A stretch of 32,000 nucleotides of DNA from Candidatus Hermodarchaeota archaeon (GCA_048886185.1 JBHLKY010000005.1:119001-151000); one strand, 5' to 3'; counted from the stretch's first letter, positions 177-21,772 are shown. Notes: generated by a model from the sequence alone, not told the origin. Numbers and translations are program-made.

Positions 177-1274
177 TTATTTTCTTCGCTTTCGTTTCTT
201 TGATTTTCTTTTAGTTGCCTTCAGGGATTTCTTAGTAATTTTTTTCTTGGATTCTTTTTTTGAAGCAATTTCAGGAAAATCCTTTGAAATTTCTTTTAAT
301 ACTTCTTCAGGAGAGAGATCTTCAATCATTGAATTATCTGTAACTAATTCATCCCCATTGAATTCCTCTCGAATATCCTGAGTTGCCTGTTTAAGAACTG
401 CTTTAATTTCCAGAACATCGGGCGATTCATAGAAAAGAGATTCCATTTTTGATGATTCTACAGTATTCTCCATATCCTCCCTTTTAAATAAAGCGAGATC
501 TTGAATACGATCTCGAGCACGCCTCATCTCCTCCCGCAAAGCTGCTGCATCGACTGTTTCTTCAAGTTGCTTATCCGTAAGGCTAGTACTTGTTTTAATG
601 ATTCTTAAGCGTTCTTTTGGAATATTTAACCCTGCTCCAGCTACTAATGCGTCTAAAACAGGAGTAAAATCATCGAAAATACTTGTGTCAATAACTTCTC
701 GCTGTATCTCCTCATTAAAGACTTCAGCAAATCTTAGAGCTAATAAATCTGTCAGTTCATCAATAGGATCACTTTTTTCACTATCACAAATGACAGCAAC
801 TGTAATATCTGCTATCCGTCGAATGTGAATGGTTAAATCATCAGTACTTAATTTTTCAATCATTCTTCCAGTTACTTCAGACATAAGATCAAGAATTCCA
901 GTCACTAGACCAGAAAATATTGTGTCTGGAAATTCTAAACCTGAATACGAGCGACTTAAAAGACAAGTACCACCTGAACTGATGAACCAGACATAGTGAA
1001 CTACAGGTGCTTCTTTTTCAACCTCCGCGGTAACAGTAGCAGAAGCCATTCTTACTGCTTGAGTGATATCTTCTTCTAAAATTTCATCTCTATCCTTTTC
1101 TGCTGCTAAAGTAACTGCTTTAGTAGCAATTTCTCGTGCTCGTCGTGTAAGAAGCTTATTTAGAGCTTCAGTGCTTTCTTTTGCAACCCGCTGAATGCCT
1201 GTTTTTTTTAACAAAGTCCAACATTCTTTGGGATCGAAACCTAGGATAATGTTTTGATTATTATTTTTTGACAT
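177..1274 (-). CDS. Histone-fold / longin-like fusion protein with acidic helical region and Lys/Arg-rich C-terminal tail
   Basis: aa 11-77 align gap-free with archaeal HMf-type histones (KKTGIQRVAKES...LAAEKDRDEILEEDITQAV). aa 91-212 have the Asgard longin pattern (VWFISSGGTCLLSRSY...IFSGLVTGI...IDTSIFDDF). The last 28 aa contain 18 K/R. GGAG lies upstream of the ATG. Confidence 0.8.
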   Translation of the reverse strand: MSKNNNQNIILGFDPKECWTLLKKTGIQRVAKESTEALNKLLTRRAREIATKAVTLAAEKDRDEILEEDITQAVRMASATVTAEVEKEAPVVHYVWFISSGGTCLLSRSYSGLEFPDTIFSGLVTGILDLMSEVTGRMIEKLSTDDLTIHIRRIADITVAVICDSEKSDPIDELTDLLALRFAEVFNEEIQREVIDTSIFDDFTPVLDALVAGAGLNIPKERLRIIKTSTSLTDKQLEETVDAAALREEMRRARDRIQDLALFKREDMENTVESSKMESLFYESPDVLEIKAVLKQATQDIREEFNGDELVTDNSMIEDLSPEEVLKEISKDFPEIASKKESKKKITKKSLKATKRKSKKRKRRK

Positions 1275-1954
1275 TACGATTAGTTACTCCGCTGTTGATC
1301 CAGTAAAATACTTTTTAGTAGAAGTTGCTTAAATTATTGACTTTTATTTGATCTTAAAGTCTAGATACAAACTTCATTAAGATTATCAACAACAACAACT
1401 AAAAAAGTTAATGTTTATGAACCATGGAATTAAGAAATTTCTTTTATCATTTATTCTTATCTTTATAATTTTTGGGAAAACAATATTTATAAATAACTTT
1501 ACTTTACAAAAAAATAACTTTAGGGCCTAGACCCCTTAAATTTTCAAAATGATTTTTTTTAACTATTTCAAGTGGAAAGAAAGAGCTTAAACTCCTTCAG
1601 AATTTACGAAACGAAAATTAAAAGATTGATATGTTATTGGAGTCCTTCAAATAGTTCTTGACTCTATTCCCCTTAAATTAGTTCAGATAATAAACTAATC
1701 ATATTCAGAGTAGGCTATTCCTAGAAAGTACTACTCCGACCTCTGTTGAGATCATCCTTACTCCAATAGATTGTTAGTATATGACTAATGAAGTCAATAT
1801 AATGATGAATGATTACTATAAATAAGATTTTTTACCGACAAAAAAAGATAAGTATTCAACAGACGATGTATTCTTTATGTCATCTTTAAAAAGCGGATTG
1901 GAGGGGTACGCGTGTTACATTAGTAATACCAATGGTAAAGCTTTTTAAGCATGA

Positions 1955-2389
1955 ATGCCTTTGATTTGCAGGACAATTGTACTGAGTTGTGATACATTGG
2001 CAATGGAATTAGAGTTAGATAACTTAGTGAAAGACTTTTTACGATTTAGGCAATTTGATTTTGACTCAAATGTAACAATTAGGGCTAAGAATGATAGAGA
2101 AGTTCAGTTTTCTTACGTAGTGCATCGGTCGAAGGATAAGAACGTTGATATAGGTGGAAAGATTGGTGTTATCGTTAAAGATTGGGCCAGATCTTGCGGT
2201 TATAATGTAATATTAGAAGCGGAAAGACTTCAAACAAATACTGGGCTAACAAAAGTAATGGTGTGCGCAAACCAATTCTCCACAACTGCTCGTGAACTTG
2301 CTGAAAAATTGGGTATTCTTACATTAACGAATGGCGAACTAGTATCGATTAGAAAGATGTACATGCAACAACATTCATTCGATCCATAA
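1955..2389 (+). CDS. Mrr-like restriction-endonuclease-fold protein, probably catalytically degenerate (likely start ATG 2003)
   Basis: The C-terminal part VIVKDW...SCGYNVI...KVMVCANQFSTTARELAEKLGILTLTNGEL follows the Mrr_cat pattern (vqcKry..vg...v...givvTts.Ft..A...A....i.LidgeeL). Confidence 0.6.
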   Translation: MPLICRTIVLSCDTLAMELELDNLVKDFLRFRQFDFDSNVTIRAKNDREVQFSYVVHRSKDKNVDIGGKIGVIVKDWARSCGYNVILEAERLQTNTGLTKVMVCANQFSTTARELAEKLGILTLTNGELVSIRKMYMQQHSFDP

Positions 2390-16167: not shown

Positions 16168-16671
16168 CTAGGAGGAAATTTGAGATACCAATTTATGGAA
16201 TGCACTTTCAACATTTTCTCCTGTAAGTGCTGATGTATCGAAATATGCTGCGATGTTAGTTTGCTCTTCTATTAAGCTTTTTATTTCTTCATGGGAAACA
16301 GCCCTGAGTTCTTTTAAATCCGCTTTATTTCCAATTAATACGAATGGAATTTCTCCTGTTATTTCTTTTATATCATCGATCCAAGATAATCGAAGATTAT
16401 CCAAACTTTTTGGCACAGTTAAATCAAATACTAGTAAAGCTCCTTCAGACTTCGTATAAAACTTTTTTCGGAATTGACGGAACAACGTTTGCCCCGCTAT
16501 ATCCCAGATTTGCAAGTAAATTTCATTATCATTAACAAGAAGAGTTTTTGAAGTTACAGCAACACCAATTGTAGCTTTGTAATCCCCTGTAAATGAACCA
16601 GTTACAAATCGATCAATTAAGGAGGTCTTCCCCACAGCCCCATCTCCCGCTAAAACTATTTTTAATTTCAA
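16168..16671 (-). CDS. Rab-like small GTPase (paralog 2)
   Basis: G1 GDGAVGKT, G2 YKATIG, G3 WDIAGQ, G4 NKAD, G5 SAL. GAGGT lies upstream of the TTG start. Confidence 0.93.
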   Translation of the reverse strand: MKLKIVLAGDGAVGKTSLIDRFVTGSFTGDYKATIGVAVTSKTLLVNDNEIYLQIWDIAGQTLFRQFRKKFYTKSEGALLVFDLTVPKSLDNLRLSWIDDIKEITGEIPFVLIGNKADLKELRAVSHEEIKSLIEEQTNIAAYFDTSALTGENVESAFHKLVSQISS

Positions 16672-16795
16672 TTAACCGACCTCAAGCTCAGATATTCTTG
16701 CTTAAAACAACTAAATTTCTATCCATCCTCTTCTATATAAGACTAGTGAACATTTTGAAGGGATTTTCTCATCTAGATTAGTTATGAAAGCAGCT

Positions 16796-17356
16796 TTAAT
16801 TTCCTATAAGATGTGAAATAATAGTTGCAAAAGTCTTTTCAACATTCTCTCCAGTTAATGCAGATGTATTATAACTTGCCACTATATTCGGATATTTTTC
16901 ATTAAAAGAAGTCACATCTTCGGAAGAAACCGTAATAAGTTCTTCCAAATCCATTTTATTGCCTATTAGAATTACAGGGATTGGATTTTGTATGACATCG
17001 TTAATATCTTTCATCCATGAAGAAAGACGTGTCAAGCTACTGGGTAGAGTCAAATCGTATACCAAAAGACCACTCTGAGCATTGGTAAAGAATCTTTTTC
17101 TAAAACCACGAAATAACGCCTGGCCAGCAATATCCCAAACTAATAATTTTACAGTCACTTCTTCATTATCTTTTTCAATAGCAACTTCTTTTGTGAAAAT
17201 ATCAACACCAATGGTAGCTTTATATTCAGAAGTAAATTTACCGGCTATATATTGATTCACTAAAGTGGTTTTGCCTACAGAGGCTTCGCCTGCGATAACA
17301 ATCTTAAAACACCAAATGTTATCTTCCAATTGTAGTGTCATTTTTTCTAGTCTCAC
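16796..17356 (-). CDS. Rab-like small GTPase (paralog 1)
   Basis: G1 GEASVGKT, G2 YKATIGVD, G3 WDIAGQ, G4 NKMD, G5 SAL; RabF-like IGVDIF, KLLVW, LVYDLT. Confidence 0.93.
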   Translation of the reverse strand: MRLEKMTLQLEDNIWCFKIVIAGEASVGKTTLVNQYIAGKFTSEYKATIGVDIFTKEVAIEKDNEEVTVKLLVWDIAGQALFRGFRKRFFTNAQSGLLVYDLTLPSSLTRLSSWMKDINDVIQNPIPVILIGNKMDLEELITVSSEDVTSFNEKYPNIVASYNTSALTGENVEKTFATIISHLIGN

Positions 17357-17366
17357 TTAATTCGCT

Positions 17367-18128
17367 TTAAGTTCCTTTGTGTAATCGTTCGCCTAATTGC
17401 TCCGGTAGTCCAACTTTCTTGATTCGGAAAGCAACTTCTTCAATATTATAATCAACCTTGATTATCTCTGCTGAAACTGCCTCTAAATCAATAACTGCAT
17501 AACTAGCTCTAGGATCGCGATCACGAGGTTGACCAACACTACCAGGATTACACATTAACAATTCTTGACCTGTATCAGCTGATTTAATCTTATCAACAAA
17601 GGGGATATGCGTGTGACCCAATAATAAGATCCCAATCTCAAATAATTCCATGAAAGGAAAAAGATCCTTCTGTTCGGGAGTATTAGGTCGGATGTATTCG
17701 TCTAAAGGATATTGAGGGGAACCATGAATAATAGAAATACTAATACCATATTTTTTTTCCGATAATGTCCTAGAACTAGGTAATTGGTATACTAATGCTT
17801 TTTCTTCAGGAGTTAAGACAGCAGCCTGCCATTTAATGGCCTGTTGAGCGTACCTATTAAATTTTTCAATATATTTGTCAAAATTGGCAATGTCTCTGCC
17901 CCCACCGCCGATGGCGTGATCATGGTTTCCTTTAGTGACAACAGTGAACTTTCTTTCATTAATTATCCGATTGATCACATCATTTGGATCTGGGCCATAC
18001 CCAATAAGGTCTCCTGGGCATAGAAATTCGGTAATATCAGCAAAATTCTGTAGAATATCATTTAATACGGCATCCAAAGCAACTATATTTGCATGAATAT
18101 CTGAGATGACAGCTAGTGAGTATGCCAC
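17367..18128 (-). CDS. Calcineurin-like metallophosphoesterase (MJ0912/YfcE-related)
   Basis: SDIHAN, GDLIGYGP, GNHD, HGSP, GHTH and NPGSVGQPRD motifs. GAGGT upstream of the GTG start. Confidence 0.9.
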   Translation of the reverse strand: MAYSLAVISDIHANIVALDAVLNDILQNFADITEFLCPGDLIGYGPDPNDVINRIINERKFTVVTKGNHDHAIGGGGRDIANFDKYIEKFNRYAQQAIKWQAAVLTPEEKALVYQLPSSRTLSEKKYGISISIIHGSPQYPLDEYIRPNTPEQKDLFPFMELFEIGILLLGHTHIPFVDKIKSADTGQELLMCNPGSVGQPRDRDPRASYAVIDLEAVSAEIIKVDYNIEEVAFRIKKVGLPEQLGERLHKGT

Positions 18129-18899: not shown

Positions 18900-20309
18900 T
18901 TAATGTTGTTTTAATTCAAATACAAACTTTATTAAATCGTTTAATGTTTCCACTTGGTATATTTCTGCTCCTACACCTTGGAAATACTGCACAACGGAAT
19001 CACCAGTATTCCACCGAATTTGTTTTTCAGGGTTCAAAATAATTACTCTCTTTGAGGGTAGTACCATTTTCTCTAAAAGTTCAGCACTAATTGGTCTAGT
19101 GACACTCCACATCCCATCATAATCTCGACAATCTCCTAGAATTAATACAGTAGTCCTACGAGATAGAGGTCGATATTTAGTAAGGACAAAAAAATCTTCG
19201 AATGAAGATTGGTAATCCGAATGAATTCTCCTAGTCCGAAGTGTCTTTTCCCAACATTTTTCTCTATCTTTAAGAGCACGGTCAATAGTTTTTCTCTCGA
19301 GAGCGTCTGTAACCTCTACCATAGTGTTATCAAATTCAAAAATGCGAATTTTCCTAAATACATTTTGAGCTGCATATGTTATCACAAAAAACCAGTCAGC
19401 TACCCATCTTGTTGAACCAGAAACATCATTAAGAATGATAATTTCAGGATCCTGAATTCTTTTTTGTCTTTGAACAAGATCAAGAGGGGTTCCATTATTG
19501 GCTAAGTTTTTACGAAACGTTCGCCGAAAATCAAGTTTTCCAGACTTGGCAAGTTTCCGACGACGTTTTTCCCGAGAAGCTAAAATACGCCCAATCTCTA
19601 TAAGCTGCTCTTTTACATTTGAGACTGCTATAGATAGATAGGATAAATCATTGTAGAGAAAGGAGTCTATTGAAGAGATATCTGCTGGTCTTTCCTGTTG
19701 AAGATGTTCTAACTTATTGGAATCTTCTCTGAATTGTTCTTGAAATCGTTTAGTCATAGCTTGATCAAACATTTGAAGATTTATTCCTAGTTGTATAGTT
19801 TCTTCTGGTAACTCTAGACGTTGATTTTGTGGTAAATCACGAATAGGTACTCTAATTCCAAAAGCTAAACGAAAAGCTCGTTGTAAATCAGCTTGTAAAC
19901 TAATAAACCCAGCTACTGGTGATTGACTTGATGATGAATCTGCCCCTCTGCTATTTAGTATTTCTACTCGTTGAACTGCTTGATCAATTTCACTTTCTAG
20001 TAACATTTGGCCAATCTCTTGGTGATCTGGATCCTCTAATCGTTCAATAAATCTTTTTTTAGCTCGTTCATAAGCTTGTTTCTCTCGATTTATAATGGGC
20101 TGCCGTTTAAAGAAAGAATTGAACGCTATATCAAAAATGTGGATATCTTCACGTTTTCTCACAATAGAGGCTCTCAAACCAAATTGTAATGCCTCTTTTT
20201 CTCGAGTCCCAATAATTTGATAAGCTTTTTGAGCTGTGATGGTTTCATCTGGGGCAACAGGCATTCCAAGATATCGTAATAAAGCAACAAAATCTAGAAT
20301 GACTCCCAT
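18900..20309 (-). CDS. VWA domain protein, CoxE-like
   Basis: LDFRRTFRKNL, MIDAS-like DVSGS, ILGDCRD, LNPE..WNTGDS; directly downstream of a MoxR ATPase. Confidence 0.85.
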   Translation of the reverse strand: MGVILDFVALLRYLGMPVAPDETITAQKAYQIIGTREKEALQFGLRASIVRKREDIHIFDIAFNSFFKRQPIINREKQAYERAKKRFIERLEDPDHQEIGQMLLESEIDQAVQRVEILNSRGADSSSSQSPVAGFISLQADLQRAFRLAFGIRVPIRDLPQNQRLELPEETIQLGINLQMFDQAMTKRFQEQFREDSNKLEHLQQERPADISSIDSFLYNDLSYLSIAVSNVKEQLIEIGRILASREKRRRKLAKSGKLDFRRTFRKNLANNGTPLDLVQRQKRIQDPEIIILNDVSGSTRWVADWFFVITYAAQNVFRKIRIFEFDNTMVEVTDALERKTIDRALKDREKCWEKTLRTRRIHSDYQSSFEDFFVLTKYRPLSRRTTVLILGDCRDYDGMWSVTRPISAELLEKMVLPSKRVIILNPEKQIRWNTGDSVVQYFQGVGAEIYQVETLNDLIKFVFELKQH

Positions 20310-20323
20310 TAACGTGATTCTCC

Positions 20324-21199
20324 CTACTTAGTGCCTAATCGTATGATTTCCTTCAGCTGACTTTCTAATCGATTGATATCTTCTTGATACTTCAAGAGGA
20401 CAGTTATGGTTTCTTTCAAGGCGGATTCATCAATGTGTTCCTTACCTAAGAGTACAAGTGCTTTAGCCCAATCTATCGTTTCTGCAATTGATGGAACTTT
20501 ACGTAAATCATATTGTCTAATCTGATTGACAATTCCTGCAATACTTGAAATAAGCGGGTCATCAAAGTTTCTTCCTGTATGAGCTGCAAGAATTTGGCGC
20601 TCGCGTTCAAGGGTAGGGAAGTCAATATATAAGAAAAGACACCGTCGTCGAAGCGGTTCACTTAAATCACGACTAGAATTACTAGTTAGAACAACAACAC
20701 GTTTCTCATTGCTTGAATAAAATGTACCTAATTCTGGAATTGTAATCTGGCGTTCCCCAAGCGCTTCTAATAAAAAAGCTTCAAACTCTTCATCAGATTT
20801 ATCGATTTCGTCTATCAACAAGACGTTCGGATCATTTTCGATAAAAGAAAGGAATAACGGTCTTTTAATAAAGAACTTCTTTGAGAAAATATCTTCTAAA
20901 TCCATTGGAGCTTTTGAAGAGGATTTTTGCCTTTCTAACTCAATTTGTAACAGTTGACGCTTGTAATCAAATTCTCCAATAACACTTTCAAATGTAATTC
21001 CCTCATAACACTGAATACGATATAATTTCCAATCTAGCGCTTTTGCCATAGAAATAGCAACACTAGTTTTTCCTGTTCCTGCAGGCCCTTCTATTAAAAT
21101 AGGACGGTTTAACTTTAAAGCCAGATCAAGTGTAATATCAATCTCAGGGTTAGAAATATACTTCTGAGCAGCCAGATCAATGTTAGATAAAGATGTCAT
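20324..21199 (-). CDS. MoxR-family AAA+ ATPase, CoxD-like
   Basis: EGPAGTGKT, RIQCYEGI, VLLIDEIDKSDEEFEAFLLE, LTSN..RDLSEPLRRRC. Confidence 0.92.
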   Translation of the reverse strand: MTSLSNIDLAAQKYISNPEIDITLDLALKLNRPILIEGPAGTGKTSVAISMAKALDWKLYRIQCYEGITFESVIGEFDYKRQLLQIELERQKSSSKAPMDLEDIFSKKFFIKRPLFLSFIENDPNVLLIDEIDKSDEEFEAFLLEALGERQITIPELGTFYSSNEKRVVVLTSNSSRDLSEPLRRRCLFLYIDFPTLERERQILAAHTGRNFDDPLISSIAGIVNQIRQYDLRKVPSIAETIDWAKALVLLGKEHIDESALKETITVLLKYQEDINRLESQLKEIIRLGTK

Positions 21200-21301
21200 T
21201 AACCGTTACTCCGAGTATACAAACTCTAAATAAGAAAAAATAAGATTTACTGAAATATTCCTTAAAAAAGAATATTAAGGTATTCCTAAAAATTATATAT
21301 T

Positions 21302-21772
21302 ATGGATATTAACAACGCAATTAATGACCTTCTAGTTAAATTCGTCCAATCAGCCGCAGGTATAAAGCAGATAATGCTTTCTGATGCAACTGGATTAGTA
21401 ATTTCAAAAGTAACCAAGGATGTAAATCATTCAGATTTTGAAGGATTCGCTTCAATTTCTACCGCGCTTTATCTTGGCATGTCTGAACTAAAACTAGGCC
21501 CACTGGGATTCAGCCTCGCAGACTTCCCTGAGAATAATCTTTTGTTGTTTGGAGTAACGAAGGAGCACGTATTAATAGTTATAACTTATAAGAATATATC
21601 GATCAACAAGTTAAAGACATCTCTAAGGGTGTTAAGTGAAAAGATTTCCCAACAGTTAGATCTTTGGAAAACAGCCGAAAATATCGAAATGAAACAGCAG
21701 GAAGTTATCGAAAAATCAGTTGGGCTATCAAAAGAGGAATTTAATCAATTATTAGATGAATTGTCATTTTAA
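21302..21772 (+). CDS. Roadblock/LC7 (MglB-like) domain protein with helical C-terminal extension
   Basis: GIKQIMLSDATGLVI, FASISTALY and the five-stranded roadblock pattern (FSLADF..NNLLLF...VLIVIT). Confidence 0.82.
   Translation: MDINNAINDLLVKFVQSAAGIKQIMLSDATGLVISKVTKDVNHSDFEGFASISTALYLGMSELKLGPLGFSLADFPENNLLLFGVTKEHVLIVITYKNISINKLKTSLRVLSEKISQQLDLWKTAENIEMKQQEVIEKSVGLSKEEFNQLLDELSF

Follow-up and report, generated by a model that had tools for sequence, protein, structure and literature searches.

Hodarchaeales genomes encode, as a single-copy gene, a protein that joins an archaeal histone fold to a longin domain. The gene described here is found on the minus strand at 177..1274 of the window, by which we mean the whole 32,000-nucleotide stretch of DNA that was analysed. 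Its product of 365 amino acids (plus stop codon) consists of a histone fold, a longin domain, an acidic region with three helices and a polybasic tail. Constraint within the protein is strongest on the longin domain, and a controlled complex prediction supports a homodimer clamped by both folded domains. Our favoured reading, which we hold tentatively, is that this doubly clamped homodimer sits on DNA or chromatin and that an invariant face of the longin domain serves as the docking site for a partner, in all likelihood one of the small GTPases.

The histone fold occupies aa 13-78 (1041..1238, minus strand). Pfam PF00808 (CBFD_NFYB_HMF) matches aa 21-74 with 23.2 bits against a cut-off of 21.4, and the NCBIfam model archaea_histone matches with an E-value of 3e-10, under its superfamily cut-off. 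PF00808 matches are present in each of the 38 aligned members of the family (best value 2.8e-11), and there are weak secondary Pfam matches to TAF/TFIID histone-fold families. Profile matches are to HMk, HMfA and HMfB; the family profile against solved archaeal histones gave 4.9e-13 for 1f1e, 1.8e-12 for 9qv6 and about 4e-10 for HMfA/HMfB. The first-pass annotation, made from the sequence alone, had claimed a gap-free alignment to HMfB and a three-helix histone fold, and both claims hold. Query residues 21-76 align without gaps to HMfB 11-66, which makes R29, R62, D69 and I70 the equivalents of HMfB R19, R52, D59 and I60, and an AF2 model built on 38 sequences has histone helices at 15-24, 32-59 and 67-77 with pLDDT 82-88. 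Since helix 3 is full-length, the fold is of the nucleosomal type rather than the truncated type of Schwab et al. 2024.

A variable linker of 11 residues leads to the longin domain at aa 90-215 (630..1007, minus strand). A longin-like domain had been called at aa 91-212 (nt 639-1004); these coordinates were correct, and the class is upheld by the AF2 topology and by longin matches in Foldseek and VIA-align. DSSP assigns strands to 91-99 and 104-109 of the model, a helix to 117-135, strands to 141-143, 148-154 and 157-163, and helices to 169-190 and 197-213. This order, strand-strand-helix-strand-strand-strand-helix-helix, is the longin topology. Foldseek matches in the PDB were AP sigma subunits, zeta/delta-COP, TRAPP Bet5/Trs23, Mon1-Ccz1 and VAMP7 (E-values 5e-5 to 1e-3), with Roadblock proteins among the matches too. 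VIA-align with aa 88-218 gave Z 14.8 for Fuzzy LD1 (rmsd 2.3, 122 residues), 14.7 for Trs23, 14.1 for VAMP7, 13.6 for Sec22b and 13.1 for Mon1, all longin matches covering 119-126 residues, as against Z of about 11.5 for MglB and LAMTOR2 across about 100 residues (89-192), with the last helix missed. At curated cut-offs the Pfam longin models PF13774, PF19036, PF04099 and PF01217 matched neither the query nor the 38 members, and sub-threshold longin matches were found only in more distant relatives and in a stand-alone paralogue; longin membership therefore rests on structure and on these relatives' sub-threshold sequence matches.

Three other assignments of the domain were considered. Roadblock/LC7 (PF03259) was rejected, because two strands come first and two helices last, without an N-terminal helix, and because Robl_LC7 found no match in the query or the 38 members. 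Together with the Z-scores and coverage relative to the Roadblock chains, the topology identifies aa 90-215 as longin. A longin R-SNARE of the VAMP7/Sec22/Ykt6 kind was rejected for want of a Synaptobrevin match at E<=10 and of a membrane anchor; the C-terminal helices are 22-26 aa long and split by variable linkers, whereas a SNARE motif has about 53 residues, and the C-terminus is polybasic, not hydrophobic. The tri-longin Rab GEFs (Mon1-Ccz1, Fuzzy-Inturned, BLOC-3) have three longin domains per subunit, as against the single one here.

The stand-alone longin paralogue is the only one in the same genome. It has 145 aa and 24% identity, with sub-threshold matches to Longin and Fuz_longin_1, and is encoded on the minus strand with an upstream 108-aa ORF (L002 1453-2213, corresponding to G000:C4 ~224919-225679). 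Its start overlaps the end of that ORF by 4 nt, so that the two are translationally coupled; the 108-aa ORF is without a Pfam match, and the pair is possibly a two-gene module. Among 36 more distant sequence relatives there are single cases of fusion to an Arf/Ras GTPase, TrmB, HTH_5, HTH_47, a TFIIB zinc ribbon, MIT and TackOD1. In P0082 (221 aa), a distant longin relative, the match for the HTH_5 fusion has 21.7 bits against a cut-off of 22. Structural neighbours in the ESM Atlas include Asgard clusters with members that carry Arf/Ras, V4R, TrmB or receiver domains beside the longin-like domain; in a Thorarchaeota cluster, TrmB is present in 52% of 127 members. The fusions of its relatives indicate that this type of longin has been combined with GTPases and with DNA-binding modules alike.

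The acidic helical region and basic tail noted at first pass are also borne out. The former, at aa 216-345 (240..629, minus strand), has a net charge of -8 and three conserved helices (about 234-259, 285-306 and 322-344), between which the linkers are variable and of low confidence. Pfam gave no family match for aa 216-345 or for the last ~130 residues, and a language-model feature search of the ESM Atlas gave no usable match with the whole protein or with aa 221-365. The tail at aa 346-365 (180..239, minus strand) has 13 K/R in 20 residues and no acidic residue, for a net charge of +13. The last 30 residues contain 13-21 K/R in 38/38 members, though sequence identity there is just 34%. In the orthologues P0019 (499 aa) and P0020 (453 aa) the tail is expanded to tandem repeats of ~8-10 residues, made of Lys/Pro/Val/Thr or of Lys/Arg/Ser/Pro/Ala and reminiscent of linker-histone or HU-type tails. 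The Lys/Pro/Thr/Ala repeats of these two proteins are like the N-terminal tail of one stand-alone histone from the query's genome in composition. No hydrophobic or lipidation motif was found in the tails of some orthologues. Polybasic tails can bind acidic membranes or RNA as well.

A word-indexed search brought up 66 relatives (55-81% identity), some 60 of them full-length, and those with meaningful labels were all Hodarchaeales/Heimdall. An exhaustive search with the longin part alone brought in further fusions of 260-347 aa at ~40% identity, among them OLS23810.1 (Heimdallarchaeota LC_3), most with a histone-fold signal too. Across 400 genomes of the phylum, with a match threshold of E<=1e-20, the fusion was present in 19 of the 22 genomes of the window's own family (including this genome), in both genomes of the sister family from the same order, and in 0/376 others, always with one copy per genome. 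The three own-family genomes without it have completeness of 71-93%. Mean identity to the query is 82% for the longin domain, 63% for the histone fold, 53% for the helical region and 34% for the tail; 45 of 126 longin columns are invariant, as against 7 of 66 in the histone fold.

That the fusion would recur in related genomes and be supported across its junction was an expectation of the first-pass annotation, and the 19/22 and 2/2 genomes with orthologues agree with it, as do contigs from four public sediment runs, each covering window nt 1-1600 without indels (the runs are from one study and possibly from the source sample). An assembly artefact was rejected on the strength of the full-length orthologues and these four spanning contigs. 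Five of the six SNPs that the contigs show within the ORF are synonymous. From orthologue conservation, distribution and SNPs we conclude that the fusion is real and under selection. One sister-family orthologue (G069:C533:5854-6858) is read through one in-frame TGA, which would fit a sequencing error as well as a pseudogene or recoding.

Upstream of the gene is an AT-rich non-coding gap of 680 nt (1275..1954). It lacks any ORF of 50 aa or longer and contains neither an Rfam family nor a tRNA; scans of the whole window for Rfam families at gathering thresholds and for tRNAs gave nothing. The gap extends to a divergent gene (1955-2389, plus strand) for a 144-aa Mrr_cat protein of restriction-endonuclease fold (Pfam E 5.8e-5). 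Orthologous loci too have gaps upstream of the histone-longin gene, of ~180-690 nt. Downstream lies a large convergent plus-strand gene whose product is a secreted or anchored protein; a run of N in its 3′ end (L001 ~1211-1315, ~180-290 nt before the window start) may be a scaffold gap. The upstream gap and the convergent downstream gene make ORF 177-1274 a stand-alone transcription unit.

The neighbourhood in the main clade comprises GNAT, amidohydrolase, MBL-fold and small Mrr_cat genes upstream and a type-IIG-like methyltransferase and PAS kinase downstream. This syntenic block is restricted to the main clade, and its genes are arranged divergently or convergently to the histone-longin gene, which is always flanked by a non-coding gap and a convergent gene. 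The small Mrr_cat gene is a conserved neighbour in close relatives only, and distant orthologues have other neighbours; a small GTPase is nearby only in LC_3, two genes away. A search of the orthologous loci for operons and conserved neighbours found no GTPase or other partner gene that is conserved. The gene is monocistronic, and its genomic context points to no partner.

The window does contain two tandem genes for Ras/Rab-like small GTPases (16168-18128, minus strand; Pfam Ras E 6e-48 and 2e-41). Ahead of them on that strand lies a gene for a calcineurin-like metallophosphoesterase. The two GTPase genes are 15 kb from the histone-longin gene. At 18900-21772, genes for a VWA CoxE-like protein and a MoxR-type AAA_5 ATPase (minus strand) are divergent from that for a protein of 156 aa, whose Roadblock/LC7 match stays below threshold (E 0.0019; 18.3 bits, cut-off 23).

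Dimerisation through the histone fold had been proposed from the start, and complex prediction supports it and adds a second interface in the longin domain. Two copies of aa 1-222, with the family alignment, scored 0.61, as against 0.00 for the best of three controls; contact agreement between runs was at least 87% and partner pLDDT at least 75. Of the calibration proteins, 20 of the 30 solved as one-chain pairs came up to the mark, and so did 1 of the 23 solved as single chains, counts that hold only roughly because a self-made alignment was used. The predicted interface comprises residues 12-74, as a histone handshake, and residues 113-147, from longin helix 1 and strand 3 (142 pairs with 142). 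Roadblock-type domains dimerise via helix 1 and strand 3. Since both interfaces look like those of solved histone and Roadblock/longin dimers, this likeness may account for the pass. Within aa 110-147 there are 24 invariant columns, 14 of them in the predicted interface. The ten outside it include D117, T125, D129 and E133, spaced by i+4 or i+8; with this periodicity they could line up on the helix as an exposed stripe.

The histone residues were compared across 73 family sequences (19 close, 44 middle-clade and 10 distant) and with histones of the same genome, which has six stand-alone canonical singlets with R-H-S-G-R-K-T...D, one doublet and one divergent histone of 78 aa. The fused fold has R29 as its loop-1 Arg and still has the R62-D69 pair, and the loop-1 position is R or K in 73/73 sequences. 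Relative to HMfB it has His49 replaced by Glu59, Lys53-Thr54 by Asp-Glu, Lys56 by Leu and Leu62 by Gln72. In the RxTxxxD motif, R62 and D69 are present, with Glu64 in place of Thr and, at the Lys53 position, Asp63. HMfB H49 and L62 are residues of the four-helix-bundle tetramerisation that allows hypernucleosomes, and both are absent from the query (E59, Q72). At the H49 position, Glu occurs in all 19 close sequences and in 32 of the 44 from the middle clade; of the 10 distant sequences, 1 has His there. The Thr54 equivalent is Glu in all 19 close relatives and is kept in 30 of 44 middle-clade sequences. Loop 2 is accordingly an acidic R-D-E in the query's subclade, as against R-K-T in the stand-alone histones of the same genome, and R-K-T is kept in other clades. 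Near the equivalent of HMfB R10 the close clade has Trp, where most other clades have Lys/Arg. The loop-2 decay of histone DNA-contact residues is specific to the query's subclade and not a property of the whole family. Net charge is about +1 for the histone fold and about -9 for the whole protein.

In the mechanism that we tentatively favour, histone folds would pair by handshake and longin domains via helix 1 and strand 3 to give the predicted homodimeric scaffold. With the tetramerisation His and the loop-2 Lys-Thr lost and the loop-1 Arg kept, the dimer would be an isolated one and not part of a hypernucleosome. It would be held to DNA or to histone-based chromatin by its Lys/Arg C-terminal tails and by the residual DNA-contact surface of the histone fold, and the invariant helix-1 face of the longin dimer would dock a partner. 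In MglB, TRAPP, Mon1-Ccz1 and Fuzzy-Inturned, GTPases are bound at this helix-1 face. Because known platforms use this face for GTPases, the partner would most likely be one of the organism's many Ras-superfamily GTPases, and the outcome would be a GTPase switch coupled to the nucleoid. The acidic loop 2, the near-neutral histone fold, the acidity of the protein as a whole and the lack of a GTPase or other conserved neighbour speak against this mechanism. We consider it improbable, and an analogy only, that longin dimers anchored on chromatin serve as a platform where a small GTPase is recruited to DNA or activated there.

The strongest rival, which we rate as somewhat unlikely, is that the histone fold is a dimerisation clamp only, as in TAFs and SOS, and that the protein is a cytosolic or membrane-associated longin platform of GEF/GAP type that regulates small GTPases and whose tail binds acidic lipids instead of DNA. 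The lost loop-2 DNA-contact residues and tetramerisation His and the low charge of the fold would then be expected, constraint is strongest in the longin domain and not in the histone fold, and the best structural matches (Fuzzy, Trs23, Mon1) are Rab-GEF longins. The histone domain of SOS binds lipids, as stated in Schwab 2024 (PMC11390915). A mere clamp fits poorly with the universal Arg/Lys of loop 1 and with the R-K-T loop 2 of other clades, however, and some orthologue tails are histone-tail-like, with neither a hydrophobic nor a lipidation motif; longin relatives, moreover, are fused to bona fide DNA-binding domains.

An improbable rival has the protein heterodimerise or stack with one of the ~eight canonical histones and so cap or interrupt hypernucleosomes as a 'capstone', its longin and acidic parts being bulky or chaperone-like. 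The six canonical singlets, doublet and divergent histone of the genome would supply partners, the Glu and Gln at the H49 and L62 equivalents and the acidic region after the fold are in keeping with it, and capstone-type variants have been discussed for Asgard chromatin (bioRxiv 10.1101/2025.05.24.653377). The homodimer prediction is confident, however, the second clamp in the longin domain would favour homodimers, and a purely steric role leaves the extreme conservation of the longin domain unexplained. Least of all do we expect an NF-Y/NC2/TAF-like transcription factor that regulates specific genes with the longin domain as sensor or partner-binding module: the weak TAF/TFIID matches would suit it, and so would the relatives in which the longin is joined to winged helices of TrmB/ArsR type or to a TFIIB ribbon, but the best matches are archaeal nucleosomal histones and not TAF or NF-Y, no gene for a heterodimer partner is adjacent, and sequence-specific binding is without evidence.

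The first-pass annotation did not know the architecture from the literature, but the fusion itself is not new, having been published with a different name for its second domain. In one sentence of a review, Hocher & Warnecke (2024, Genome Biol Evol, PMC10919886) mention Hodarchaeales fusions of a histone fold with Roadblock/LC7 and give their function as unknown. The product of ORF 177-1274 is the only fusion of a histone fold to a non-histone domain in its genome and comes from the same clade, and we therefore take it as a member of their family, which it almost certainly is; they name the second domain Roadblock/LC7, whereas that of the query has longin topology. Schwab et al. 2024 (PMC11390915) sort prokaryotic histones into 17 categories, the Rab GTPase histones of Lokiarchaeota among them, in a paper that nowhere uses the term 'longin', and a full-text literature search returned no paper combining 'histone fold' with 'longin domain'. 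What is new here is the re-assignment from Roadblock to longin, the predicted double-clamp dimer, the counts within the phylum and the decay of histone DNA contacts that is specific to one subclade.

Hodarchaeales are the archaea placed closest to eukaryotes, and histones and longin/small-GTPase modules both count as hallmark 'eukaryotic signature' systems. Here the two are joined in one conserved protein, encoded once per genome and most constrained in its longin half. It offers a concrete way into two questions: the role of longin domains in cells where no endomembranes are known, and whether chromatin was already in contact with GTPase switches before the origin of eukaryotes. With a Hodarchaeales strain now reported in culture (bioRxiv 10.64898/2026.07.02.735847), the matter has come within reach of experiment.

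Among known systems, the Rab GTPase histones of Lokiarchaeota (PMC11390915) bear out the first-pass statement that histone-GTPase fusions exist, as a family different from that of the query. Both families join an Asgard histone fold to a component of small-GTPase systems. The Rab GTPase histones have the GTPase N-terminal and a C-terminal histone of the helix-3-truncated, face-to-face type; the query has an N-terminal, nucleosomal histone with full helix 3, a longin domain instead of a GTPase (no GTPase family in Pfam matches it), and another lineage. SOS, a Ras GEF, likewise has a histone fold and a small-GTPase regulator in one chain, as an analogy only: its N-terminal double histone fold is a pseudodimer, its GEF domain is of the Cdc25 type, it has no longin, and there is no sequence relation. 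With Fuzzy-Inturned, Mon1-Ccz1, TRAPP Bet5/Trs23 and MglB the query shares the fold (Z 13-15, rmsd 2.3-3.1, 120-126 residues) at 12-15% identity, but it has one longin domain and not three, is predicted to be a homodimer and not a heterodimer, and its link to a GTPase is a candidate one only. The archaeal nucleosomal histones (HMfB, HHoB and those that stand alone in the query's own genome) differ from the query in its 290 extra residues, its low net charge and its replacement of H49, K53-T54, K56 and L62, and have in common with it the three-helix fold, the loop-1 Arg, the R52-D59 pair and an alignment without gaps.
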